Origin: an uncultured Chloroflexia bacterium
GTDB lineage: Bacteria > Chloroflexota > Anaerolineae > Anaerolineales > UBA4823
Direction of reading: 5' to 3'
DNA: 64,000 nt
NCBI GenBank assembly: GCA_963743215.1
Contig: CAVUOY010000009.1
Span: forward strand, 29,709-93,708
The notes under the pieces were generated by a model. The model was given only the letters and a program-made list of their open reading frames with translations. It did not search any database and had not been told where the DNA came from. The translations under genes were made by a program, and so were the position numbers. Positions 28,375 through 54,733 of this stretch are shown here, one piece after another (the stretch's first letter is position 1; every line of letters begins with the position of its first letter).

Positions 28375-28448
28375 GTCCCTGTAGCTCAGCGGATTAGAGC
28401 ATTTGCTTGCGGAGCAAAGGGTCGGGCGTTCGAATCGCCCCAGGGACG
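28375..28448 (+). tRNA. tRNA-Arg(GCG)
   Basis: Acceptor GTCCCTG/CAGGGAC, D arm GCTC/GAGC, anticodon stem TTTGC/GCAAA with loop TT-GCG-GA, T loop TTCGAAT. CCA is not fully encoded. Confidence 0.95.
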
Positions 28449-33807: not shown

Positions 33808-33881
33808 CGGGGTGTAGCGCAGTTCGGCAGCGCACCGCGTTTGGGACGCGGGGGTCGGCGGTTCGAGTCCGCCCGCCCCGA
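33808..33881 (+). tRNA. tRNA-Pro(TGG)
   Basis: Acceptor CGGGGTG/CGCCCCG, anticodon stem CCGCG/CGCGG with loop TT-TGG-GA, T loop TTCGAGT. Confidence 0.95.
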
Positions 33882-34295: not shown

Positions 34296-35105
34296 ATGCC
34301 CACCCCCTTCTATCACCTGAGCTTGGCGCAGGAACTATTAACTCAGCCTTCTTTGCCGGAACCAATCAACCAGTTTCTGCGAATGAGGCGTTGCGAGTTC
34401 ATGTTTGGTAATACCGCACCCGATGTACAGGTGATTTCTGGTCAAGCACGGCAGGAGACACACTTTTTCAACCTGCCCATTCTGGCAGGAGACCGGCCTG
34501 CATGGGAACGGATTTTCGTGGAATTTCCTCAACTAGTTGTATTTGATGAGCTCCCAACCGCCCAGGTGGCGTTTCTGGCAGGCTATGTGTGTCATTTACA
34601 AGCCGATTGGCATTGGGTAAATGATATCTTTGCTCCTTTTTTTGGCCCGCGCTGCTCCTGGGCGACCTTCCGCCAACGGCTGTATTACCATAACGTGTTA
34701 CGTGCGTATCTCGATACGCACATCCTGTCAGAGTTACCGAATGGTATGGATGCCTGCCTGAGTCAGGTTGTGCCTAAGAGTTGGTTGCCATTTGTGGTGG
34801 ATCATCATTTGGCGGAGTGGCGTGACCTGCTTTCCCTGCAGCTCCAACCTGGTGCCAACATTCAAACTGTGGAGGTGTTCTCCTCGCGCCAGGGAATATC
34901 GCCACCCGAATATTATGCTTTGCTGGCCTCTGAAACCCGCATGCAACAGGAAATCTTTGACCATTTTCCACTCGAGCTGGTTAATCGTTACCGGCAGAAT
35001 GTACTGGATGAAAATATACACTTGTTATCGGATATCATGGCATTCACCTTGCATCCAACAGATGCACCTACCAAGGGAAAAATATTCCAGGGAGTTCAGC
35101 CTTGA
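34296..35105 (+). CDS. zinc-dependent phospholipase C family protein
   Basis: MP...H start, FGNTAPD, TH, GYVCHLQAD..W, HN. Confidence 0.8.
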   Translation: MPTPFYHLSLAQELLTQPSLPEPINQFLRMRRCEFMFGNTAPDVQVISGQARQETHFFNLPILAGDRPAWERIFVEFPQLVVFDELPTAQVAFLAGYVCHLQADWHWVNDIFAPFFGPRCSWATFRQRLYYHNVLRAYLDTHILSELPNGMDACLSQVVPKSWLPFVVDHHLAEWRDLLSLQLQPGANIQTVEVFSSRQGISPPEYYALLASETRMQQEIFDHFPLELVNRYRQNVLDENIHLLSDIMAFTLHPTDAPTKGKIFQGVQP

Positions 35106-35933
35106 AACTAATCGAGCCAAACCGAAGACCTGTTGAAAAAGATCGCATCCAAATGCTGGTTGACCAAGCTGGTAAATTGCTTAAATTGGGCAGCACGGAT
35201 GAGCATTCTGAAGATGCTTTAATCGCACGTTTTATGAGAGGCCTGGATAATCGATTTGTCATGCTGCGCAACCTGCAGCTTGAGGGCACAGGTGAAGTGT
35301 TCCCACCTATCCTGGTTGGACCTGCAGGGCTGGTTGTATTGAACGTGAGTCGGGCAAAAGGATTTTTTAAAGCGAAAGAGGAACTCATGGTGGGAGATGA
35401 ACAAAAGCTCGCATAAATTTGGACCAGCTCGCCCCAATTTACTCCGCCAGAGCAAGGAATATGCCCAGAAACTGGCGCAAATACTGGATGGGCATGGGAA
35501 GTCTCACCCGGAAATCATACCCATATTGGTCTTCGCCAACCCAGGTGTGAATATTGAGAGTAGCAACCCGATCATCCGGATCGTGTTGATGGATGGCGTT
35601 GAAAGCTTGATCGACAGTTTTCTGAACAGTGAGGAAGTGCTTCAGACAACAGAGATCGACTTTCTATCCGATACACTCGAGATCATGTCTAACCCTGAAA
35701 AGGCTGTCCCAATGGGCGAGGGTGAAGACTTTTTCGGACGAGACCTGCTATTGACTGAGAAGAAGCCACCGCGAAAACTTCCCGAAATTTCAATTCCCAC
35801 CAATCTATCCCTTCCACCAGTAGGTGAGAAGCTGAAATTTACCCGAACGCAGGTACTGATCCTGGAAGTGCTATTAGGATTAACCATTGTGGTACTATTA
35901 GGGGCAATTATCTTTGTGTTAAAGTTCCTCTGA
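35102..35933 (+). CDS. NERD/nuclease-related domain protein with C-terminal TM (frameshift near 35385)
   Basis: ILVGPAGLVVL..KG.F pattern, then PNLLRQ...PILVFANP in the next frame. The usual acidic catalytic residues are not evident. Confidence 0.6.
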
Positions 35934-41989: not shown

Positions 41990-42121
41990 TCCTAAAATTA
42001 TACCCTTATCCTGTGGAAACCAAGGCCTCTTGGGGAGGATTAACGAGTTTTTTATGCCTGATAGGTCTATCCTGAGTGTATTTCCGAGTAAGAATTCTTC
42101 CCTGAAGTTATAATTACCCTG

Positions 42122-43618
42122 ATGATGCGTTTAAATCCATTTAGAAGATTCAGGACATTCCGCGGTGTGGAATACCTGCTTGCCGTCCTGGTGACGGTGA
42201 TTTTTACCCTGATCTTCCTGCCCTTCCGTAGTGCTGGTGGACAGGATCACACGGTTTTGTCCCTTCTATACCTGCTACCGGTCGTGCTGAGCTCGTTATT
42301 ATGGGGGCTAGGTCCAGGGGCGCTGGTGGCGTTGGCTTCATTTCTGGCATTAAACTATTTTTTCGTGGCGCCGTACTACACCTTGCTGGTACATCGCACC
42401 CAAGATTTAGTGGTGTTGATTGTCTTTTTAGGAGTTTCAATCACCATCGGGCAATTAGTCGGCAGGGTGAGTAAAAGCTTGAATGAATCCACCGCCCGAG
42501 AACATGAAGCCATTCACTTGTATGAGTTGATCATGCATCTGGCAGGCTTACAGGATGAGCAGGAAATCGTATCCACTTTGGCTGAGCAAACCCTGATTGC
42601 ATTGCATGCCGACCGGATCGACGTTTTAGTTGAAGCCCAAGGCAGCCTGCCTGCCCGTCACGTCAGGATGGCCGATCGCTCAAAAACGGGTTTTCTCCTG
42701 GAAGATTCTCCCACTTATATTACCCCTTTGCAGTCGGCGCGTGGTTTTCTCGGAGAGATCAAGGTATGGCGCGAGGTAGCCTCGCTTACCCATGCGGAGG
42801 AACGCCTGCTGCAAACTTTTGCCAGCCAGGGGGTACAGGCGTTGGAGAGAGTTCGCCTCTCGCAGGCAGCTTCGCGGGCGCGTCTGCTGGAGGAAAGTGA
42901 CCGGTTTAAGTCCTCCCTGTTATCGTCAGTTTCCCATGAGCTGCGCACTCCTCTGGCAACGATTAAAGCCGCTGTCACCAGCTTGCGTAGTGGCACGGTT
43001 GAATGGGATACAGAGGCGCGTGCAGATTTATTGGCAGCCGTGGAAGAGGAAACCGATCACCTGAACCAGCTGGTGGGCAACTTGCTGAACATGTCGCGCA
43101 TCGAAGCCGGTGCATTAAAACCGGAACGGAGCTGGAATTCACTGGCTGAGATCATTCAAAGTGCCCTCGAGCGGATGAGGACCCAAATCGAGAAGCACAA
43201 AATCGAAGTGGACGTCTCGGCTGACCTACCGCTAGTACCGGTGGATTATTTTCAAATTGAGCAAGTATTTATTAACCTAATCAGTAATAGCACCAAATAC
43301 TCCCCAGCAGGCACGACAATTGCTATTCATGCTGAAGCGGTGATCTCAGAGCATTTATTGATATCGGTAAAGAATCAGGGTCCACACGTGGCTGAAGAAC
43401 ATCTGGATCGTATTTTCGACAAATTCTTCCGGGTTACGGCTGCGGACCGGGTTACTGGGGCAGGGTTGGGGTTAAGTATTTGCAAGGGGATTATTGATGC
43501 CCATGGAGGGCGCATATGGGCGGAAAACCTGGACAGGGGTTTCGGCTTCAACTTTACATTGCCCCTTACCTGGGAAGGTTTTGCCCTGGGAACTCAGCAG
43601 GAGATAATTGACGAATGA
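42122..43618 (+). CDS. kdpD: KdpD-like sensor kinase (4-TM DUF4118, GAF and kinase; no N-terminal cytoplasmic KdpD/Usp domains)
   Basis: LYLLPVV, LNYFFVAPYYTL, SSVSHELRTPL, NLLNMSRIEAG, GLGLSICKGII. Confidence 0.85.
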   Translation: MMRLNPFRRFRTFRGVEYLLAVLVTVIFTLIFLPFRSAGGQDHTVLSLLYLLPVVLSSLLWGLGPGALVALASFLALNYFFVAPYYTLLVHRTQDLVVLIVFLGVSITIGQLVGRVSKSLNESTAREHEAIHLYELIMHLAGLQDEQEIVSTLAEQTLIALHADRIDVLVEAQGSLPARHVRMADRSKTGFLLEDSPTYITPLQSARGFLGEIKVWREVASLTHAEERLLQTFASQGVQALERVRLSQAASRARLLEESDRFKSSLLSSVSHELRTPLATIKAAVTSLRSGTVEWDTEARADLLAAVEEETDHLNQLVGNLLNMSRIEAGALKPERSWNSLAEIIQSALERMRTQIEKHKIEVDVSADLPLVPVDYFQIEQVFINLISNSTKYSPAGTTIAIHAEAVISEHLLISVKNQGPHVAEEHLDRIFDKFFRVTAADRVTGAGLGLSICKGIIDAHGGRIWAENLDRGFGFNFTLPLTWEGFALGTQQEIIDE

Positions 43619-44313
43619 CCTCTCAGCCGCACATCTTAGTCATCGATGATGAAGCACAAATCCTGCGGGCGCTACGCACTATCCTGACTGCCAAGCAATT
43701 CAAAGTGAGTGTTGCCAGCCGGGGTGAAGAAGGGCTGACCATGGCAGCGGCCCAGCCGCCCGATTTGATCATCCTGGACCTAAGCCTGCCAGATATGGAT
43801 GGTGTGGAGGTTTGTGCCCGCTTGCGTGAGTGGACCCAGGTACCCATCATCATCCTTTCAGTACGCGAAAGTGAGCGCGATAAGGTCATTGCCCTGGATA
43901 AAGGTGCTGATGATTACCTGACCAAGCCATTCGGAATTGAGGAGCTTCTGGCGCGCATCCGGGTGGCATTGCGCCATTCTGCCCAGACCCTTGGCAGCCA
44001 AAAAAGCCAGATCATCACGGTCGGATCCGTCGTGATTGATCTGGCGCTACATACCGTTACCCGCGCTGGGGAGGAAGTCAAGCTGACCGCTAAAGAATTC
44101 AAGCTGCTGGCTTACCTGGCCGCTAATGCAGGTCGGGTTTTAACCAACCAATCGATCCTTACCCATGTATGGGAGCCAGCGGATGCAGACCGGGTGGAAT
44201 ATCTGCGCGTATATATCCGGCAGCTGCGAAAAAAATTAGAAGACGACCCAGACAACCCGTGCGTTATACGCAACGAGCCAGGCATTGGGTATCGTTTCCT
44301 GATGGATGAGTAA
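43615..44313 (+). CDS. kdpE: KdpE-type response regulator (OmpR family)
   Basis: ILDLSLPDMDG, VPIIILS, GADDYLTKPF, YLRVYIRQLRKKLE.DP, EPGIGYR. Confidence 0.88.
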   Translation: MTSQPHILVIDDEAQILRALRTILTAKQFKVSVASRGEEGLTMAAAQPPDLIILDLSLPDMDGVEVCARLREWTQVPIIILSVRESERDKVIALDKGADDYLTKPFGIEELLARIRVALRHSAQTLGSQKSQIITVGSVVIDLALHTVTRAGEEVKLTAKEFKLLAYLAANAGRVLTNQSILTHVWEPADADRVEYLRVYIRQLRKKLEDDPDNPCVIRNEPGIGYRFLMDE

Positions 44314-44381
44314 CTTTTTGTGGATTTGGAGATATGCTTGGAATATAGAGTAGAGTACAATTAGCAAGTTTGGGAGATGAA

Positions 44382-45518
44382 ATGGCCAAAAAAACTCAAT
44401 CCAAGAAATTAATCGACCCATATCCTGGGTTAGAGGATAGTGCAGTCAGCCAGCTGCGCCAGGAGTTGCTTAGCTATCAGGAACTACTCCAAGCGCAGCC
44501 TCCACTCGTGCAGCGATTTTTGGAGACACAGGCCTCCTCGCTGGCAGAGGCGGTCGTTCAAGGTTTACCCCAGGCGCGTTTCACGTTGCCTGATCGGGTT
44601 GTGCTTCAAAAGGAGGCGGAGGCGAAACCAGCAATTGTGCCAAAGGAAGCGCGCGAGCAGATGACGGGTGGACTGATGGACCGCCTGACGCGCACCGACT
44701 TGCGCACTGCCCTACGCTTGCGCCTGGGAGAGCTGGAACAATCCTCGAACCGTTCGGTCGCGGTTAGCGCAGGGCTCTTACGCCATGCAGTGGTCAGGCA
44801 TATGATACGCAATATGCTGCCAGCTGGTCGAACGGTACGGTACATAGTGAGTGAAGGCGAAGAAATTCCCAGCGTCCCGAAGAAGAGCGACTGGGAGCCA
44901 GAGTCGGCCATCACTGCCTCGACGGATGCCATCGCCGCAGAAGATGAGCGAGAAGAGGCAGGCAGAGGTGAGCTGTTGGTGCCCTATGTGGAAGCGGCAC
45001 GGCGATTTTACTTGCCCCAATGGGTTGCATTTGATGATGAAGGACGTCTCCTGGTGGGAAGCGTGAATGAGGCTGAGGCGGATATCGGCTCCATGCAGCG
45101 TTATATATCGGTTTTGCATGCTGCGGTGGGGCTGGCACCCTACATGGTAGCGGATGAGGAATACCAGCGCAAGCGTTATGGAATATTAGGCCAGCTGGTG
45201 AATCAGGGAAGAGCTTTGGCGCACTACCAGGTGGAAGAAATCATTCAGACCATCCATCGTAGAGCTTCCTCACATGACTTAAACAGGGGATTGAGTCTGA
45301 GCCTGCCGTACTTTAATGACCAAACGCTGGCGATGGAGAACTATAGTTTCGAAGTAATTCCAGCCGGGCGGATCATGTTTGTGCCGGCTTTCGTAGTGCG
45401 GGCGGCGCGCGAGCAAGAAGCGAAAATTGCCCAGGATACACGCCTGAGCCAATCCACACGCAAGCACTTGCTCGTAGAGCTCCGTAATCTTGATCAAGCA
45501 TTTTCTCAATTAGAATGA
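44382..45518 (+). CDS. hypothetical soluble protein, copy 1
   Basis: Long ORF with GGAG RBS and no TM segment. Clear paralog at 47527-48654. Confidence 0.88.
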   Translation: MAKKTQSKKLIDPYPGLEDSAVSQLRQELLSYQELLQAQPPLVQRFLETQASSLAEAVVQGLPQARFTLPDRVVLQKEAEAKPAIVPKEAREQMTGGLMDRLTRTDLRTALRLRLGELEQSSNRSVAVSAGLLRHAVVRHMIRNMLPAGRTVRYIVSEGEEIPSVPKKSDWEPESAITASTDAIAAEDEREEAGRGELLVPYVEAARRFYLPQWVAFDDEGRLLVGSVNEAEADIGSMQRYISVLHAAVGLAPYMVADEEYQRKRYGILGQLVNQGRALAHYQVEEIIQTIHRRASSHDLNRGLSLSLPYFNDQTLAMENYSFEVIPAGRIMFVPAFVVRAAREQEAKIAQDTRLSQSTRKHLLVELRNLDQAFSQLE

Positions 45519-45540
45519 TTAACAGTGATCGGTATTCGAT

Positions 45541-47370
45541 ATGATATTTTCGATTGGTCTTCTGATCGTTATAGCTTACTTAGCCTACCGAGCCTCGCCT
45601 CGTGAGCGACAGGAGGACGCGCACGTACATGGCGCCGGGCAGATAGGTTTATTGGCCGCGATTGCACTCTTTGGGGTGGATTATTTCACTTCGTTCTTCT
45701 ATGCAACGGGCGAGATGATGAGCTCATTGCACCCATACGGATTACAGAAATACGGATATATCGCTGTAGCCTTCATTGCTTTCGCGAATGCAGTCTTCGG
45801 ATTTTTATACATGTATTCGTTGGGCATCTTCAACGAGGGTGGCGGATCCTATACTGCCTCCATGCGTTACCTTACGCCGGCCCTGAGCCTGATCGTGGCA
45901 GTTGTGCTTATTCAGGATTATATTTTTACAATTGTTGTATCCACTCTCTCCGGAGTAGATCAAGCGCTGTCCCTGCGCAATGCCACCGGGATACCGTGGT
46001 TTTGGCATTTTCTAATAGCGGCGATTTTGGTTTCAATAAACTACTTCCTGACGATCCGTGGGAGGGGCGAATCGGCACGGGTGGTTTTCATTATGCTGTT
46101 CGTCTTTGTTTTGCTCACGGTGACAATGGCTTTTGGGTTATTTCGAGCCAGCGCAGTGGGTGTGCCAGCTTTACCCATGCTTGAACAACCAACAACTGTT
46201 CCTATCGGCAAGGCCTTATACCACATGTTAACTGCCTCGATGAAAGGACTGGTCGCCCTGAGTGGTTTGGAAGCCATGTCGAATGGCATCCAATTCGTCA
46301 AGAACGAGGATGCCGGGATTGTCAAGTGGGGTAAACGCCGGCTTCCACGTCTCAAAGGGCTGTGGGCATTCTATAGTGGGAAATCGGGCATCGGGCGGAT
46401 AGTCCAGACCTCATTTTTGTTCTATGGTGGGATCAGCACTTTACTTCTGGCTGAATTTGCCATTCGTTTCGATGCCTTTGATGGTACGATGGGGCGTACC
46501 CTCGTCGGGAACCTGGCATTCATCGGATTCGGTCAGATCCAGGGCGGAGTTATATTGTTCTGGGCATACCAGATACTGGCAGTCGGGCTTTTAACTGCCG
46601 CCTCGATGACTGCATTCCAAGATCTGCAAGCGACCGCCTGGCGGGATGTTGCCATTGGTGAAATCCCCGAAGTTGTTGTGTACCGCAATCCAGCTGGGAC
46701 GTTCACACGCTCGGTGACCGCAGGATTTATCATTTCATTGGTGATTATGTTGATTTTGCGCGCTAAACAGTCAGCCGCTGTCCCCTATTATGGCATCGGT
46801 GTGTTCATGCCTATCATGGTCATGGGGTTGGCGATTCGTAAACATATATTGGCAAAATTTTCCGGCAGGGTGCGTAAATGGGGCAGCACGGGGGCATTGT
46901 TCGCTGCAATTTTAGCCGGGCTTGTTTTTATCGGTCAGATCGTAGGTAAATGGACTGAAGGTGGTTGGGTGGTGCTCATTTCATTCAGTGTGCTTGTACT
47001 GACTGCGAATGGATTGCTCATTTCTCCCATCGGTTATCGCGACGTTAAGCAAATTCACCGTATTGTGCGCGAGAAAGCCCGCGTTCAGGGTTCGATGGGT
47101 TCTATTGTCGAGTGGCAATCCTTAAAGATGCAGGAGTATCGATATGCGTTGCTGATATTCATCACCCGTTTTTTCGAGGTTTTGGGTGTGCGTAGACCTT
47201 TACGCTTCGAACCTCCTATCGAAGCCGGGACATATGATGAAGCCGTACACTCCGATCACCCTGAAGCGCCTTCACTTTTAGCTCAATACCTTGAGAAAGA
47301 AGAAAAACCCAAGGTGGGTGGCAAACCAAAGGAAACTGCCCCCGGAGACGACCCCTCAAAATTGCCATAA
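45541..47370 (+). CDS. APC-superfamily transporter, KimA/YdaO-like, copy 1
   Basis: About 12-13 TMs. GVDYFTSFFY, GGGSY, QDYIFTIVVS and ALSGLEAMSNG parallel recalled KimA motifs. Confidence 0.75.
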   Translation: MIFSIGLLIVIAYLAYRASPRERQEDAHVHGAGQIGLLAAIALFGVDYFTSFFYATGEMMSSLHPYGLQKYGYIAVAFIAFANAVFGFLYMYSLGIFNEGGGSYTASMRYLTPALSLIVAVVLIQDYIFTIVVSTLSGVDQALSLRNATGIPWFWHFLIAAILVSINYFLTIRGRGESARVVFIMLFVFVLLTVTMAFGLFRASAVGVPALPMLEQPTTVPIGKALYHMLTASMKGLVALSGLEAMSNGIQFVKNEDAGIVKWGKRRLPRLKGLWAFYSGKSGIGRIVQTSFLFYGGISTLLLAEFAIRFDAFDGTMGRTLVGNLAFIGFGQIQGGVILFWAYQILAVGLLTAASMTAFQDLQATAWRDVAIGEIPEVVVYRNPAGTFTRSVTAGFIISLVIMLILRAKQSAAVPYYGIGVFMPIMVMGLAIRKHILAKFSGRVRKWGSTGALFAAILAGLVFIGQIVGKWTEGGWVVLISFSVLVLTANGLLISPIGYRDVKQIHRIVREKARVQGSMGSIVEWQSLKMQEYRYALLIFITRFFEVLGVRRPLRFEPPIEAGTYDEAVHSDHPEAPSLLAQYLEKEEKPKVGGKPKETAPGDDPSKLP

Positions 47371-47391
47371 AAACCTCACAAAGTACGTCTC

Positions 47392-47430
47392 AAAGACCTC
47401 CCAGTACTTGGGAGGTCTTTATTCTTTTTT
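47392..47430 (+). terminator. rho-independent terminator between the duplicated cassettes
   Basis: AAAGACCTCCCA-gtact-TGGGAGGTCTTT followed by a T-rich tail. Confidence 0.85.
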
Positions 47431-47526
47431 AATGCCTTTGCCTAAATTATTTGTCTCCATTTTATTCTGACTCGATAGAATATTACTGAAAATCAAGAGG
47501 GCTCAGATCAAGACCCAGAGGATTTT

Positions 47527-48654
47527 ATGGAAGATCATGCGCAACTAATTACCCAAATCACTCTAAGCATTCCCACCGGAGTTGTGAGTCAATTTCGGCA
47601 TGAATATCTTAGTCACCAGGCGCAATTGCAGGATCAAGCGCCGCTGGTGCAACGGTATCTCGAGATTAATGCCGCCTCGCTGGCTGAAGCTGTTGTGCAG
47701 GGGTTAATGCAAGTCCGATTTTCCCTGCCCGACCAAGTGGCCATACGCGATCATGATTCGGATGTAAATACTCTACCCGTGCCTGCTGAATCTCGGGAAC
47801 AGATGATCGGTGGATTAATGGATCGCTTGATTCGCACTGACCTGCGTACAGCCTTACGAACTCGTTTTTTGGAATTGGAAGCTTCCATGAACCAGGCATT
47901 ATCTATGAGTGCCATTCTATTGCGGCATGCCGTGGTGCTGCACTTGGTGCACAACATGCTGCCATCCGGGAATACCGTCCAATATGAGTTAGAAGAAGGG
48001 GAAGAAATCCCGACCATACCTGTATCGATTAAGGCGATGTCGGGATCGGCTATCACAGAAATGTCTTATGGGGGCACGAAAGGGGATGCTCATGCTGAGA
48101 CCAGGCGGGGTGAGCTGTCAGTGCCTTATGTTGAGGCAGCGCGACGATTTTACCTGCCACAATGGGTGGCATTTGACAATGATTTAAGTTTATTGGTGGG
48201 GAGTATAAGCGAAGCCGAGGCAGTTATTGCCTCGATGCAGCGTTATTTGTCGGTATTGCATGCTGCGGTGGGATTAACACCCTACATGGTGGCGGACAAG
48301 GAATATCAGCAAAAGCGTTATGGGATCCTGGGTCAGTTGGTGAACCAGGGACGAGCCCTGGCACACTATCAGGTGATGGAGATCGTTCAGACGATTCAAC
48401 GCCGGGCAGCATCGCATGACCTAGACCGTGGTTTGAGTTTGAGTCTGCCGTATTTTAATGATCAAACGCTGAAGAAGGAAGAATATAACTTCGATGTGAT
48501 CCCGGCAGGGAGGGTGATGTTTGTACCGGCGTTTGTCGTTTTAGCTGTCCGAGCGCAAGGAGCGAAAGTTGCTCAAGACACGCGCATGAGCCAGTCAACA
48601 CGCAGGCATCTGCTGGCAGAGTTGGGGTTGCTGGAGCAAATATTTTCGAGGTAA
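47527..48654 (+). CDS. hypothetical soluble protein, copy 2
   Basis: Shares PYVEAARRFYLPQWVAFD, KRYGILGQLVNQGRALAHYQV and RGLSLSLPYFNDQTL with copy 1. Confidence 0.88.
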   Translation: MEDHAQLITQITLSIPTGVVSQFRHEYLSHQAQLQDQAPLVQRYLEINAASLAEAVVQGLMQVRFSLPDQVAIRDHDSDVNTLPVPAESREQMIGGLMDRLIRTDLRTALRTRFLELEASMNQALSMSAILLRHAVVLHLVHNMLPSGNTVQYELEEGEEIPTIPVSIKAMSGSAITEMSYGGTKGDAHAETRRGELSVPYVEAARRFYLPQWVAFDNDLSLLVGSISEAEAVIASMQRYLSVLHAAVGLTPYMVADKEYQQKRYGILGQLVNQGRALAHYQVMEIVQTIQRRAASHDLDRGLSLSLPYFNDQTLKKEEYNFDVIPAGRVMFVPAFVVLAVRAQGAKVAQDTRMSQSTRRHLLAELGLLEQIFSR

Positions 48655-48657
48655 AAA

Positions 48658-50484
48658 ATGTTTTTTTCGATTGGTTTATTGATTGTCATTACTTATTTGA
48701 TGTACCGTATCTCGCCACGCGAGCGGGCCGAGGATGCACATGTACACGGTGCAGGGCAGATTGGTTTGCTTGCTGCCGTGGCACTTTTTGGAGTGGATTA
48801 CTTCACTTCGTTCTATTATGCTACAGGCGAGATGATGAGTGCACTGCACCCATATGGGCTGCAGAAATGGGGATTCGTTGCGGTAGCAGTGATTGCCATA
48901 GCAAACGCAGTTTTTGGTATTCTGTACATGTACTCGCTGGGGATATTTAACGAAGGTGGTGGATCTTATACTGCCTCGATGCGCTACTTGTCCGCCGGGA
49001 TCAGTCTTATCGTGGCGGTCGTTCTGATCCAGGACTATATTTTCACCATCGTCGTATCCACCCTGTCAGGAGTGGACCAGGCACTATCACTGCGCGGTGC
49101 CACAGGAATACCCTGGATATGGCATTTTCTCATCGGCGCAGCTCTGGTAACCATTAATTGGTTCCTGACCATCCGTGGAAGAGGAGAATCCGGAAGGGTG
49201 GTATTCACCTTATTGGGTGTCTTTATCCTGATGACTGTTACCATGGCAGTTGGTTTATTTATGGCTCATTTTGGTGGTGTTGCCGCTGTACCAATATCAG
49301 CATCGCCTCAATCGGTAACCATAGGCCGAGCGCTATATCACTTTCTCACTGCCTCTATGAAGGGATTGGTTGCGCTTACGGGTTTGGAAGCCATGTCGAA
49401 TGGAATCCAGTTTGTCAAGAATGAGGATGCCGGAATTATCGCCTGGGGCAAGAAGCGCCTGCCGCGCTGGAAGAAAATTTGGGAATTCTATAGCGGAAAA
49501 TCGGGCATTGGACGGATTGTTCAGACTTCATTCCTGTTCTATGGTGGGGTTACTACATTAATGTTATCCGCGTTTTCCATCCGTTTTGATGTATTTGATG
49601 GCACCTTGGGGCGTACATTGGTTGGCAACCTGGCATTTATCGGTTTTTCACAAATCCCCGGTGGCACGGTTCTTTTCTGGGCATATCAAATCTTAGCGGT
49701 GTTGTTGTTGACTGCAGCTTCCATGACCGCTTTTCAGGACCTCCAAGCAACGGAGTGGCGCGATGTTTCCATTGGTGAAATACCTGAGATCATTGTCTAT
49801 CGTGACCCACGGGGTACTTTTACCCGTTCTGTAACTATTAGCTACGTATTAACCATGATCATTATGTTTATCGTCAAAGGTAATACTTCAGCGGCAATCC
49901 CATATTATGGTGTAGGTGTATTCATGCCTATCATGGTCATGGGTTTCTCGATCCGTAAGCATATACTCCAGAATTTTACTGGACGCGTTCGTAAATGGGG
50001 CAGCCTGGGGGCTGGATTTGCCGCTATTCTTTCAGCAATCGTATTCCTTGGCCAAATTGTAGGAAAGTGGCAAGAAGGCGGTTGGGTTGTGTTAATATCA
50101 TTCAGTGTGTTGATTCTGGCTGCCAATGCCCTGCTCATTTCACCGATTGGCATTCGTACACCGAAGCAGATCCATCGCATTGTGCGTGAAAAAGCTCGTG
50201 TGCAAGGCTCGATGGCTTCCATTGTGGAATGGCAATCCTTGAAGATGCAGGAATATCGTTATGCTGTACTTATGGCAATCACCCATTTCTTTGAATTGCT
50301 TGGCGTGCATCGACCTGTGCGATACGACCCACCCATCCCGGCGGGTGATTATGACCATGCCTTACATAGCGATCATCCGGAAGCCCCTTCTTTCCTGGCG
50401 CAATATCTGGACAAGAAAGAACCGCCTCGTCTGGGGGGAAAACCCAAGGAGACTGCTCCAGTGCATGAAGGTCACACGCCCTGA
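48658..50484 (+). CDS. APC-superfamily transporter, KimA/YdaO-like, copy 2
   Basis: Colinear paralog of 45541-47370. ALTGLEAMSNG. Confidence 0.75.
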   Translation: MFFSIGLLIVITYLMYRISPRERAEDAHVHGAGQIGLLAAVALFGVDYFTSFYYATGEMMSALHPYGLQKWGFVAVAVIAIANAVFGILYMYSLGIFNEGGGSYTASMRYLSAGISLIVAVVLIQDYIFTIVVSTLSGVDQALSLRGATGIPWIWHFLIGAALVTINWFLTIRGRGESGRVVFTLLGVFILMTVTMAVGLFMAHFGGVAAVPISASPQSVTIGRALYHFLTASMKGLVALTGLEAMSNGIQFVKNEDAGIIAWGKKRLPRWKKIWEFYSGKSGIGRIVQTSFLFYGGVTTLMLSAFSIRFDVFDGTLGRTLVGNLAFIGFSQIPGGTVLFWAYQILAVLLLTAASMTAFQDLQATEWRDVSIGEIPEIIVYRDPRGTFTRSVTISYVLTMIIMFIVKGNTSAAIPYYGVGVFMPIMVMGFSIRKHILQNFTGRVRKWGSLGAGFAAILSAIVFLGQIVGKWQEGGWVVLISFSVLILAANALLISPIGIRTPKQIHRIVREKARVQGSMASIVEWQSLKMQEYRYAVLMAITHFFELLGVHRPVRYDPPIPAGDYDHALHSDHPEAPSFLAQYLDKKEPPRLGGKPKETAPVHEGHTP

Positions 50485-50561
50485 TAGCAGGTAAACCAGT
50501 AAATTAACGACCACAGTCGATATGATAAAATCCCTTTGCACGAAATTGCAAAGGGATTTTT

Positions 50562-53406
50562 ATGGTCTCTGACCCAATCTACGTCCTGCCTGTATCGGAT
50601 GTGTTTCCTTCCTTGGAGACTTCGCCCCATGGTCTATCCATCAGTGAGGTCGAAGCACGCCGCTCATTGTATGGCAGGAACCAGCTTACCGAGCCGCCCA
50701 GCGAGCCTGCCTGGAGAAAACTATTTGGATTTATCACTCATCCCATGGCACTCCTACTGTGGGCTGCGGGTGGGATTGCTTTATGGCTGCGTGAACCCAC
50801 CCTGGGGGTGATCATCTGGATTGTAGTGCTGGTGAATGCCGCTTTTTCCTACTGGCGGGAATACCGGGCGGAACAAGCGACGGCCGCATTGCAGCACCTA
50901 TTACCAAGTTATGCCCGGGTGATCCGCGACGGTGTGGAAGTCAAAGTGTCTGCGGGTGACCTGGTGCCGGGGGATGTCCTCGTCCTGGCAGAGGGGGATA
51001 ACATCCCGGCGGATGCACGTGTGGTTGAAGAATATGGCTTGCGCGCCAACAATGCGGTGCTCACGGGTGAGGCTGTGCCGGCGCGCAAGACCGCCGATGC
51101 CTCGCTGCAAGAGGGGATCAGTGAGGTGGAACGCCCCAACCTGATCTTCACCGGCACTTCAGTGGTCTCGGGGACAGGCCGGGCGGTGGTATATGCTACG
51201 GGCATGCTCACCCAGTTTGGGCGCATTGTCCGACTTACCCAGGCAGTGCATGAAGAACCCAGCCGGTTACAGCAGGAAATGTCTCGGCTGACACGTACCA
51301 TATCCTTTTTTGCCCTGGGATTGGGGGTGATCGTTTTTGCGGTGGGCATTGTGGACGTCAAGATGGGGATCAACGAGGCGTTCATCCTGGCATTAGGCAT
51401 CATTGTAGCAACCATCCCTGAAGGCCTTCCAGCCACGGTCACCCTGTCCTTGGCTGTTGCGGTACAGCGGTTGGCCCAGAAAGGCGTGCTGGTCAAGAAG
51501 CTGTCCATCCTGGAAACGCTGGAGCACGTATCGGTTATCTGCACTGATAAAAGTGGCACCCTGACCCAAAACCAGATGACGGTCCGCCAGGTGTGGGTCA
51601 GTGGAAAGCCATTGGTGGTCACTGGAACAGGTTATGAGCCGGTAGGCGAGTTTGTGCCTAATCTGGGCAGCGAGGCAGCCGAGAGAGATCTACAAGCCCT
51701 GCTCACCGCAGCCATGTTATGCAATAACTCACGCTTGAACCCACCCTCCCCAGACTTCCCCCATTGGACAGTGCTCGGTGACCAAACAGAAGCCGCGTTA
51801 CGCGTGCTGGCGTTAAAAAATGGGCTGACGGAAGAGGCATTTAATAAAACCCTTCCCCGCATCCATGAAATCCCCTTTGATGCCCGGCGGAAACGGATGA
51901 GCACTATTCATCAAGTAAATCGACCAGAGTTTGCTTTCTCCGCATATTCCCGTCGGGCAGCAGGTAGCCTTTATCAAAGGCGCCCCGCGTGAAGTTTTGC
52001 AGCTTTGTACTCACCTGCGCATGCATGGTGAAGTGATCCCGCTGGATGACAGCCATCGGGCGAGGATTTTATCTGCCAATGACGATTATGCCCGCAATGC
52101 TTTGCGGGTGTTGGCACTCGCATATCATGAATTACCTCCTCGCGTGGGTAGTTATACCGCCGAGAGGGTTGAAGTGAACTTGATATTCCTGGGTCTGACC
52201 GCCATGATGGACCCCCCACGCCCGGAAGTGACGGAAGCAGTCAGCACATGCCGTAAAGCCGGCGTGCGTATGGTGATGATCACTGGCGACTACGGTCTGA
52301 CTGCAGAATTGTTGGCCAGGCGCATCGGCATGCTTACGACAATGAGCCCGTTGATCCTGACCGGCGCAGAATTGGAAAGGCTCAACGATATTGAGCTGGA
52401 AGGAATTCTTGACAAGGAAGTAATATTTGCCCGCATGGCACCAGAGCATAAATTGCGCCTGGTGGCAGCCTACCAAGCACGCGGGGATGTGGTTGCAGTG
52501 ACTGGTGATGGAGTCAACGATGCACCTGCCCTGCGTAAAGCAGATGTAGGCGTGGCAATGGGCCTGGTTGGGACTGATGTTGCCAAGGAAGCTGCGGACG
52601 TCATCCTGACCAATGATAACTTTTCTACCATCGCTCGCGCCATCGAAGAGGGGCGCACGGTGTATGACAACCTGCGCAAGTTCACCACCTATATCTTCTC
52701 GAGCAATGTGCCTGAGATTTTACCTTTCATCCTCACCGCATTGCTCAACCCGCAGGTAATGCCGCTCGCCTTGGGGGTCAAGCAGATCCTGGCCATAGAC
52801 CTGGGAACCGACCTGTTCCCTGCCCTGGCACTGGGAAGCGAGAACCCGGAGCGGGACGTGATGCAGCGCCCACCACGGAGCAAGTCTCAACCTCTCGTGG
52901 ATGGCCGTTTGCTGCGGCGGGCGTTTTTATGGTTGGGATTGATTGAGGCAGGCTTATGTTTTGGAGCATTCTTCTTCATCAATAACGGGCTGGATATCCC
53001 ATTCTTTCAATCCCTGCATGCCAGGATATTCTCCGTCGTTCCACACGAAGAGCAACACAACCTGGCAATCACGGTCTATTATGCCGGGGTGGTCATGGCA
53101 CAGATCGGGAATGCTTTCGCATGCCGCACTGAACGCAACCGTGGCCGCTTCCTCGGGTGGTTCAGTAATCCCACCCTGTTGCGTGGGATTATTATTGAGC
53201 TGGCGATCCTGCTTGGGTTAATTTATCTAAAGCCGTTGGCTGATCTATTTGGTCATATAGCCATACCGCCGGTATTATGGATTGGGCTGATCTTCTTTCC
53301 GCTGATCATCTACAGCCTGGATTGGATCCGCAAGATGCTCATCCGCTTGCGGGAACATCTGGTACAGCAAGTGATTAATAGTTCTGTGAGCAAGGAGGAA
53401 ACATGA
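50562..53406 (+). CDS. P2-type cation-transporting ATPase, P2C (Na+/K+, H+/K+)-like (frameshift near 51945)
   Basis: LTGEA, IPEGL, DKSGTLTQNQM, KGAP, TGD, GDGVND, SSNVPEI, ILAIDLGTD. Confidence 0.9.
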
Positions 53407-54062
53407 AGGTAATCATTATTGGATGTGGTCGGGTCGGAGAGCAGCTGGCGCGTTTGCTCGTCGACGAAGGTCACCAGGTGTCGGTGATCGATTACGATGC
53501 CAATGCCCTGGCACGCCTGGGACCAAATTTTAAAGGCAAAACGATGATTGGGGTGGGATTTGATCGTGATTTATTGATCAAAGCCGGGATTGAGCAAGCG
53601 GATGCTTTTGCCGCTGCTAGCTCATCCGACAATGCCAACATCGTTGCGGCTCGTATCGCCCACAACATCTTCCACGCGCCCCGCGTGGTAGCCCGCCTTT
53701 TTGACCCACAAAGGGCTGAGATTTATCGCCGCCTGGGTATGTTGACCATCTCATCGACCACCTGGGGGGCAGAACGCCTGCGTGAGATGCTCACTTCTGC
53801 GGAGATGGATCCAATCATCAGCTTTGGCAGTGGCGAAGTGAGCCTGGTTAATATCGAAATCCCATCTCACCTTGCAGGGCGCATCGTGAAGAACCTGTCG
53901 GTCCCGGCTGAAACGGTGGTAGTAGCCATTACCCGCCAGGGGGCAGCCTTCATTCCCACCTTGGGGAGTGAGCTCAAGGAAGGTGATGTGGTCCATTTAG
54001 CACTCCTGGCTTCAGCCCTGGAACGTTTCAAAACCCTGATCGGACTCGTGGAAGGAGGGTGA
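53403..54062 (+). CDS. trkA: TrkA/KtrA family RCK protein
   Basis: IIGCGRVG Rossmann motif, AGIEQAD, C-terminal RCK_C domain. Confidence 0.92.
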   Translation: MKVIIIGCGRVGEQLARLLVDEGHQVSVIDYDANALARLGPNFKGKTMIGVGFDRDLLIKAGIEQADAFAAASSSDNANIVAARIAHNIFHAPRVVARLFDPQRAEIYRRLGMLTISSTTWGAERLREMLTSAEMDPIISFGSGEVSLVNIEIPSHLAGRIVKNLSVPAETVVVAITRQGAAFIPTLGSELKEGDVVHLALLASALERFKTLIGLVEGG

Positions 54063-54063
54063 C

Positions 54064-54733
54064 ATGTTTGTCATCATAGTCGGTGGTGGTAAGACTGGTT
54101 CGCAGCTCGCCACACAATTGCTCAGTGGTGGACATCAAGTTAAATTAATCGAAGATCGCCCGGCAGTATTAGAAAAGCTTCGGCAAGAACTTCCCGTAGA
54201 TATTGTTGTGGCTGGAGATGGCAGCTCGCCCAGTGTGCTCGAAAGCGCAGGGATTGAACACGCCAATGTGTTAGCAGCCGTCACCGGTGAAGACGAAGAT
54301 AACCTGGTGATCACCACATTGGGACGGTTTGAATTTGGGGTGCCGCGCATCATTGCCCGCGTGAATAATCCTAAAAACGTGTGGCTGTTCACCCCGGAGA
54401 TGGGTGTGGATGTGGCTCTAAGCCAATCAGACATCCTGGCCAAGCTGATTGCAGAGGAAATGTCGCTCGGCGATATGATGACCCTGCTTAAACTACGCAA
54501 GGGCGAGTTTTCCATCGTCGAAGAGAAAGTGGATCCAAGGGCAGTGGTGGTGGGTAAAATGCTGCGCGATATTAATCTGACCTCCCCAATGCGTTTTTGC
54601 GGCAATCATCCGCAAGGGTCAGCTCATCGTACCGAATGGAAACACCGAGCTGGCGCCAGTGGATGAGGTGATCGCATTGGTGCATGCCTCTCAGGTGACT
54701 AAATTAGCCGAGCTTTTGGGTCGTCCAACCTAG
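54064..54733 (+). CDS. trkA: second TrkA/KtrA family RCK protein (frameshift near 54580)
   Basis: IVGGGKTG, VTGEDEDNL, IIARVNNPKN. The RCK_C end AIIRKGQLIVPNGNTEL...DEV is in a shifted frame ending at TAG 54733. Confidence 0.9.

Follow-up and report, generated by a model that had tools for sequence, protein, structure and literature searches.

A conserved gene module, probably one that handles K+, was found in a 64,000-nucleotide stretch of DNA (the window) on contig C9 of a 3.9-Mb, 80%-complete genome whose nearest relatives are Anaerolineales (Chloroflexota). Nine genes lie on the + strand at 42122-54733, in the order kinase, regulator, X1, T1, X2, T2, P-type ATPase, RCK1 and RCK2, where the two T proteins are transporters derived from the K+ importer KimA, the two X proteins belong to no known family and the two RCK proteins are of the TrkA type. 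The interpretation that we favour, with somewhat better than even confidence, is that this module works beside an ordinary kdpFABC operon: T would import K+ together with H+, with X as its cytosolic partner, and the ATPase would act as a Na+ or H+/K+ pump under RCK control. A preliminary description of the locus had given nine co-oriented genes in this place and order, with a terminator between T1 and X2. Both points were borne out, the terminator as a hairpin at 47392-47420; the ATPase and RCK2 each contain a frame break. The features are as follows.

42104..42114, + strand: extended -10-like element (function presumed), directly 5' of the kinase start and kept in close relatives
42122..43618, + strand: short KdpD-type histidine kinase, 498 aa (DUF4118 with four transmembrane helices, HisKA, HATPase_c; lacking KdpD and Usp domains at its N-terminus)
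43615..44313, + strand: KdpE-like response regulator, 232 aa, with KdpE as best NCBIfam and PDB match
44353..44361, + strand: -10-like element (function presumed) 5' of X1, without a KdpE-type repeat
44382..45518, + strand: X1, 378 aa, soluble and without a known family; acidic loop at about 44904-44945
45541..47370, + strand: T1, KimA-derived APC-fold transporter without the cytosolic domain, 609 aa
47392..47420, + strand: hairpin of 13 pairs with a T run behind it, resembling an intrinsic terminator and kept in close relatives
47428..47481, + strand: predicted KdpE-type operator, whose T-rich hexamers begin at 47428, 47450 and 47461 in 11-bp phase, together with a -10 element at 47476-47481
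47527..48654, + strand: X2, X1 paralogue (68% identical) with a degenerate acidic loop, 375 aa
48658..50484, + strand: T2, T1 paralogue (79% identical), 608 aa
50562..53406, + strand: P-type ATPase, ion sites resembling those of Na,K-ATPase; reading frame interrupted near 51940, intact in relatives (947 aa)
53403..54062, + strand: RCK1, TrkA_N and TrkA_C, 219 aa
54064..54733, + strand: RCK2, TrkA-type; frame break near 54580, intact in relatives (222 aa)

The arrangement was examined in 67 loci retrieved with X1 as query and in 151 order-level genomes, 33 with X and 118 without. T followed X directly for 78 of the 81 X copies, two of the others lying at contig ends and one being an exception, and the pump followed in 55 of the 58 loci with sufficient flank; because of these two counts the arrangement is more than chance. 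RCK genes were found downstream of the pump in 45 of 46 evaluable pump loci, and the conserved core is X-T-pump-RCK-RCK. X and the T clade were present in the identical 33 genomes, and neither was seen in the other 118; 60 further genomes gave weak T-profile matches only, and the ten such loci that were examined held canonical KimA-like genes. The pump clade was present in 28 of the 33 X-bearing genomes (in a 29th, G294, it is frameshifted) and the RCK1 clade in 32 of them, both being absent from all 118 others; these genome counts, like those given below, span related genomes, and kin are not independent. At the level of the phylum, X was found in 2 of 201 genomes, the source genome included. 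The cluster is common to many soil and sediment Chloroflexota.

This survey of X neighbourhoods had been proposed in the preliminary description, and it shows that the gene combination is kept across Anaerolineales loci. The findings as a whole support the proposal made there of a conserved K+-type module that pairs a KimA-like transporter with a closely linked partner of no known family and is probably subject to control of the KdpE type. Some of its details held only in part. X had been called an obligate partner, which is correct per genome (33/33) but not per gene: X lies directly before T for 78 of the 88 T matches and not for the other 10, some of which are fragments or canonical KimA. 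KdpDE, counted there as part of the module, is optional: of the 67 loci, 27 have the kinase-regulator pair upstream, 24 lack it and 16 could not be evaluated. The two X-T cassettes are indeed present in the window, but the full X-T-X-T duplication was seen in only 13 of the 67 loci, all close relatives, and is lineage-specific.

KimA was the only significant PDB sequence match of T (E 1.5e-15; profile 4.4e-24) and also the top match in a fold search (E 6.9e-13). In an alignment of 65 T proteins, comprising 63 of the 71 full-length copies from the loci and the two copies of the window, the equivalents of KimA D36, Y43, D117, Y118, T121, E233 and Y377 were invariant; the T230 position was occupied by S in 36 proteins and by T in 29, and the N237 position by N in 57 and by D in 8. 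The roles of the K+-binding, gate and proton-coupling residues of KimA are as given in the available portions of PMC6994465 and PMC10284832. The K+ site of KimA (D36/Y43/T230/Y377) and its proton-coupling E233 are kept in all 65 T proteins, T230 as S or T, and the LeuT-fold membrane domain homologous to that of KimA is present. T aligned with canonical KimA-like proteins over residues 34-489 only; for comparison, a canonical relative aligned with KimA over 26-650. The modelled C-terminus of T is helical, with no beta-sheet, and the PPAT-like C-terminal cytosolic domain, which in KimA is protomer-swapped and binds c-di-AMP, is absent. At the position of the c-di-AMP-contacting R337, Glu was found in 65/65 T proteins, as compared to R or K in 11/11 canonical proteins, and in a quick tree of 23 of the 65 T and 11 canonical rows T formed one side of a long branch with 100% support. 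We infer that T acts like KimA, yet it departs from KimA in two features, the cytosolic domain and Arg337; it likely imports K+ with H+. No ydaO riboswitch, or any other riboswitch, was found in the window or in three loci.

A relation between KimA-like transporters and TrkA-type genes was also seen outside this clade. At least 27 of the 47 weaker RCK1 matches in the order adjoin a canonical KimA-like gene, as confirmed in the ten loci examined, and one canonical KimA-like protein from these loci matched B. subtilis KimA over its full length (E 3.8e-136). A KimA-like gene beside TrkA-type genes is, by that count, a common arrangement, and the module of the window is best read as a derived form of this KimA-TrkA/TrkA arrangement. 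The RCK pair is presumably orthologous to CeoB/CeoC of mycobacteria, where Rv2690c presumably adjoins ceoBC. The arrangement can also be seen in the published Streptomyces venezuelae locus tags Vnz_27465/Vnz_27460, both of them listed, with no TrkH/KtrB, in the available part of PMC10117811, and CeoB/CeoC are called a 'Trk' system in that of PMC13163235. In one locus the pump and the RCK pair are separated by a canonical KimA-like gene (L066:5414-7405), and a single operon thus holds both transporter types.

X is predicted to be soluble and has at least 3590 homologues at 90% clustering, falling into 411 clusters at 50%; two of 20 representatives carried an organism name, and both were Anaerolineae. 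No match was obtained for X in Pfam, in NCBIfam or among PDB sequences. The AF2 model of X1 had a pLDDT of 85.7, and three fold searches yielded no Foldseek match at E<=0.001; the best structural match (Z 7.1, rmsd 2.6, 69 aligned) was on the C-terminal helices, with the N-terminal half barely covered. The ESM Atlas gave no usable match for the whole of X, and an assignment of residues 225-377 to SecA_DEAD was rejected, the ESM Atlas rows being at chance level (0.80 or less). X showed no similarity to the cytosolic domain of KimA and no internal repeat, and no longer or fused form of it was found among 7992 candidates, which is weak evidence.

Two parts of X stand out. Four mini-X genes (134-157 aa, from two genomes) match only profile positions 275-378, and because each of them precedes T, they mark the C-terminal unit of about 105 residues as the minimal X and its putative T-linked part; ten Arg/Lys positions in this unit are kept in at least 59 of 65. 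The other part is an acidic loop around residues 174-186 (X numbering starts at 44385, one codon past the ATG at 44382), which has low model confidence, yet is conserved. Of 54 pump-bearing loci, 53 have it, the remaining one (L039) carrying a variant, as compared to one of three pump-less loci; the loop was absent from 5/5 further pump-less cassettes, L110-L114, and is degenerate in second X copies such as X2. These patterns, which are correlations among kin, suggest an adaptor, and X is likely a separately encoded partner of T. The predicted T1+X1 complex scored 0.29, the mark being 0.32.

The pump was analysed in an intact relative, where Na,K-ATPase alpha-1 was the top PDB match (3e-145). 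Among 42 full-length homologues, M5 Y-x3-S-N-x2-E, M6 I-D-x-G-T-D and the M8 Gln were nearly invariant; for the P2C motifs M4 PEGL, M5 S-N-x-P-E, M6 D-x-G-T-D and M8 Gln, the key residues were found in 41-42 of the 42, the M5 Pro in 38. The M5 motifs listed for four other P2 pumps of the genome differ from the Na,K pattern. DKSGT stands in place of DKTGT in 42/42, and no P2 subfamily cut-off of NCBIfam was reached. The gene, described earlier as a P2 ATPase, is of that type but is better called Na,K-type (P2C-like) than generic P2, and its residues predict that it exchanges Na+ or H+ for K+. Uncharacterised P2C-like pumps of methanogens are described in the available portion of PMC10654040, which lists the function of prokaryotic P2C-like pumps as open.

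The RCK proteins contain TrkA_N and TrkA_C, with the GxGxxG motif in 84 of 85; the c-di-AMP-binding RCK_C signature, as quoted in the accessible text of PMC10117811, was found in 0/85, although this signature need not cover all binders. The RCK pair was absent from 8/8 pump-less X-T cassettes (the flank of L114 being only 1.6 kb long), and three T-less loci (L038, L117 and L118) keep pump-RCK-RCK. On these two grounds the pair goes with the pump rather than with T in this clade; elsewhere in the order it goes with canonical KimA. The P2C-like pumps of L117:5574-8441 (- strand) and L118:3577-6528 (+ strand) are 45-47% identical to the clade and have a Lys directly before PEGL in M4; two RCK genes come after each of them, and both X and T are missing. 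Elsewhere in the source genome, two further TrkA_N domains and one diadenylate cyclase domain were seen (C26:1407-1676, C8:591729-591941, C14:85155-85520).

The kinase at the head of the cluster has the four-helix DUF4118 membrane domain and the HisKA/HATPase part of KdpD, and lacks the N-terminal KdpD (serine kinase) and Usp domains of full-length KdpD. No Pfam GAF match was obtained, though the region in question lies inside a continuous KdpD-profile match. A short KdpD form (TM/GAF/DHpCA) is reported, also for Chloroflexota, in the available part of PMC11018627, and the kinase fits this already described form. The best NCBIfam match of the regulator was KdpE (241.5 bits; cut-off 325), as was its best PDB match, E. 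coli KdpE (E 5e-63; next family E 8e-46). The element at 42104..42114 before the kinase is likely a leaderless promoter.

Downstream of the terminator, and 5' of the -10 at 47476, the T-rich hexamers at 47428, 47450 and 47461 (in 11-bp phase) resemble the E. coli KdpE site, given in the accessible text of PMC3264566 as TTTATA-N5-TTTACA. With an operator matrix built from 12 divergent loci, the window site ranked first of 7.79 million genome positions (43.2 vs 18.8 bits). The matrix exceeded 15 bits in 15 of 19 regulator-adjacent loci vs 0/21 without a regulator; the held-out loci L107, L108, L111, L116, L124 and L125 reached 25-46 bits, and 12 control loci at most 13.7. The site upstream of kdpF ranked 50th of the 7.79 million, with 11.5 bits; the kdpE that belongs to that operon encodes a protein which differs from the window regulator in its recognition helix. 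No KdpE-type repeat was found in the upstream region of X1-T1. The sequence upstream of X2 is probably a KdpE-type operator. Some loci carry an upstream kinase of 1100 aa; its candidacy as KdpD-like was rejected, and it is an unrelated Cache/PAS kinase. In L016, L020, L027, L032, L035, L037, L039, L040, L116 and L124, a protein of about 240 aa with no Pfam match is encoded after the KdpE-type repeat, with the regulator on one side and X or T on the other. Its N-terminal part is predicted to be alpha/beta and is followed by two hydrophobic helices at the C-terminus; its probabilities as a Usp-like or a KimA-domain protein were 2.1 and 0.1.

The nine genes are tightly packed, the intergenic gaps being, in order, -4, 71 (to codon 2 of X1), 22, 156, 3, 77, -4 and 1 nt. 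The P-type ATPase is split near 51940 into two frames of 476 and 491 aa, and in both the ATPase and RCK2 the break amounts to a net one extra base when compared to 10/10 close relatives. Contigs from four public sequencing runs were compared, none of which covers the whole stretch; the base was absent at 51942 in one of the four runs and at 54579/80 in three. No RNA run containing this DNA was listed among the sequencing runs. As other genes of the same assembly are also frameshifted (window 35102-35852, and kdpD, in three frames, at C12:304944-307582), the two frameshifts are likely, though not proven, to be assembly errors. Two tRNA genes lie in the window, at 28375-28448 and 33808-33881.

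The preliminary description had further proposed that the locus holds KdpDE without KdpFABC, the module replacing Kdp as the KdpDE-controlled K+ system of the lineage. The first part is true of the window, in which no kdpA, trkH or kup was found, but not of the genome. A genome search for kdpABC and trkH, also suggested there, disclosed a kdpFABC-kdpDE operon (kdpA, kdpB, kdpC, kdpD and kdpE) at C12:299597-308292, with a KdpA match at C12:299627-301384, C12 being the sole contig with such a match; TrkH and K_trans had no match anywhere in this 80%-complete genome. KdpA was present in 6/6 sampled genomes of the genus, namely this one and five congeners. Among the 151 genomes, KdpA was found in 14/33 with X and 11/118 without, and TrkH in 6/33 and 10/118; KdpA is thus commoner with X, a direction opposite to that expected of replacement. 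Moreover, the module adjoins kdp operons in several loci, with such an operon directly upstream of it in L071 and L125. Replacement is already contradicted for the source genome and is not supported in general, and in this genome the module supplements Kdp. Some findings do fit the proposal: the KdpE-type repeat sits 5' of the X2-T2 unit, KdpA was not found in 19/33 and TrkH not in 27/33 X-bearing genomes, and the module may be the main K+ system in those that lack KdpA. Even so, replacement is the least credible of the explanations considered here. Two side observations concern kdp operons themselves. A 254-aa protein resembling the KdpD membrane and following region, without the kinase domain, is encoded between kdpB and kdpC (G000:C12:303566-304330), and one of the same kind occurs at L109:9140-9889. 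At L109:5480-7300 (- strand), kdpC and kdpD are separated by an inserted T gene together with an additional response regulator.

In our preferred interpretation, T, devoid of the KimA cytosolic domain, would import K+ with H+, and X would dock on its cytosolic face via the C-terminal unit of about 105 residues, replacing the lost domain that controls the gate and forms the dimer; the acidic loop of X would contact the pump or the RCK pair. The ATPase would exchange Na+ or H+ for K+ under the control of RCK1/RCK2. When K+ is low, the KdpE-like regulator, once phosphorylated by the short KdpD, would turn on X2-T2-pump-RCK-RCK from the repeat at 47428-47481, with X1-T1 expressed from its own box-less promoter or by read-through.

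A number of observations weigh against this scheme. Some T genes have no X in front, one of them being that inside the kdp operon of L109; X occurs without T in L038, and L117 and L118 have pump-RCK-RCK without an X match. L061 keeps the acidic loop without a neighbouring pump, and of 96 distant X representatives at least 300 aa long, no more than 9 match the loop pattern. The pump match to Na,K-ATPase is tied with that to the Ca2+ pump LMCA1 (4e-145), and a PMR1-type model scored higher (565) than the Na,K model TIGR01106 (545.7; cut-off 946.1). An Asn is found in 42/42 pumps where Na,K-ATPase M8 has the Asp that belongs to its third Na+ site. As to the operator, the 12 training sites were chosen with a first matrix seeded on the window site, which makes the first rank partly circular; all 15 box-positive loci are closely related to the window, a weak repeat or none was recovered in L025, L035, L061, L071, L110 and L112-L115, and the training loci L029, L037 and L063 have it without a co-oriented regulator directly upstream. 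Should both frameshifts be genuine, this strain has neither an intact pump nor an intact RCK2.

The separate occurrences of T and X would also be expected if T imported K+ alone and X were a co-regulated soluble factor (an enzyme, chaperone or regulator) that does not bind T; a search of proteins of 749-2135 aa for an X-T fusion was, moreover, negative, though as evidence this is weak. However, X and T are in exactly the same genomes (33/33), X co-duplicates with T up to three times, even as mini-X, and what is missing from T is exactly the domain that controls KimA, and we regard a non-binding X as unlikely. Another explanation is that T is no longer a bulk K+ importer and serves instead as a K+ sensor or as a carrier of some other cation or of an amino acid, transport being left to the pump. 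The very long branch between T and canonical KimA, the structural-alignment identity of about 20%, and the fact that the APC fold also carries amino acids are in line with such a role, which is nevertheless improbable in view of the K+-site and proton-coupling residues, all kept in 65/65 T, and of the T genes that occur without a pump in at least eight cassettes and inside a kdp operon. Finally, the fixed order X-T-pump-RCK-RCK and the co-occurrence of all parts at the clade level could reflect one obligate machine similar to KdpFABC, in which T would be the subunit that selects K+ for the ATPase. This we consider very improbable: the pump retains ion sites of its own, and both T without the pump and the pump with RCK genes but without T occur.

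Certain parts of this system are already known: the KimA-RCK neighbourhood, the regulator and the form of the kinase. As judged from titles and abstract openings, in a search whose coverage excluded most subscription papers, no description of X or of the module was found in the literature, nor one of a truncated KimA clade with a partner X or of an RCK-linked Na,K-like pump. A bolder version of our preferred interpretation, offered tentatively and in our view rather unlikely as a whole, is that X is a new-fold adaptor, that its C-terminal unit replaces the c-di-AMP domain of KimA and its acidic loop couples the symporter to the RCK-gated Na,K-type pump, and that one nucleotide-sensing RCK assembly coordinates both. 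If this is true, a secondary K+ importer would be coordinated with a P-type ATPase by a single RCK assembly, a form of control that we did not find described for either class. More generally, the module points to a KUP/KimA-type transporter that may be controlled by a separate protein instead of a built-in c-di-AMP domain, and to a bacterial Na,K-ATPase-like pump whose gene context suggests both its ion and its regulator. It also bears on the targets of stand-alone TrkA pairs without TrkH.

When compared to known systems, the module combines familiar parts in a different way. With KimA of B. subtilis (KUP family; PDB 6s3k, 8b70, 8b71), T shares the APC/LeuT-fold membrane domain and the ion residues; it differs in lacking the PPAT-like cytosolic domain, in the Glu at the R337 position, in its linkage to X, in a basic insert on the cytosolic side and in one additional helix predicted at the N-terminus. 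The canonical KimA and TrkA/TrkA pair of Anaerolineales, Streptomyces venezuelae and mycobacteria (ceoBC) likewise places a KimA-type transporter beside two single-RCK genes with no TrkH, whereas here T is shortened, X is added and the pump lies between T and the RCK genes. With TrkAH/KtrAB, the RCK proteins share TrkA_N, TrkA_C and GxGxxG, but the operon contains no pore subunit (TrkH/KtrB), TrkH being encoded elsewhere in 6 of the 33 X-bearing genomes. The pump shares with Na+,K+-ATPase (P2C), its top PDB match, the M4 PEGL, M5, M6 and M8-Gln motifs, and differs in the M8 Asn for Asp, in DKSGT, in the RCK genes that follow it and in its tie with LMCA1; no beta-subunit-like gene is present in its operon. 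Finally, a KdpD-type kinase with four transmembrane helices, a KdpE-like regulator and T-rich repeats in 11-bp phase 5' of a -10 element are shared with KdpDE/KdpFABC. The window kinase differs in having neither the serine-kinase nor the Usp domains, and its predicted target is X2-T2-pump-RCK, while the kdpFABC operon of the genome has its own kdpDE.

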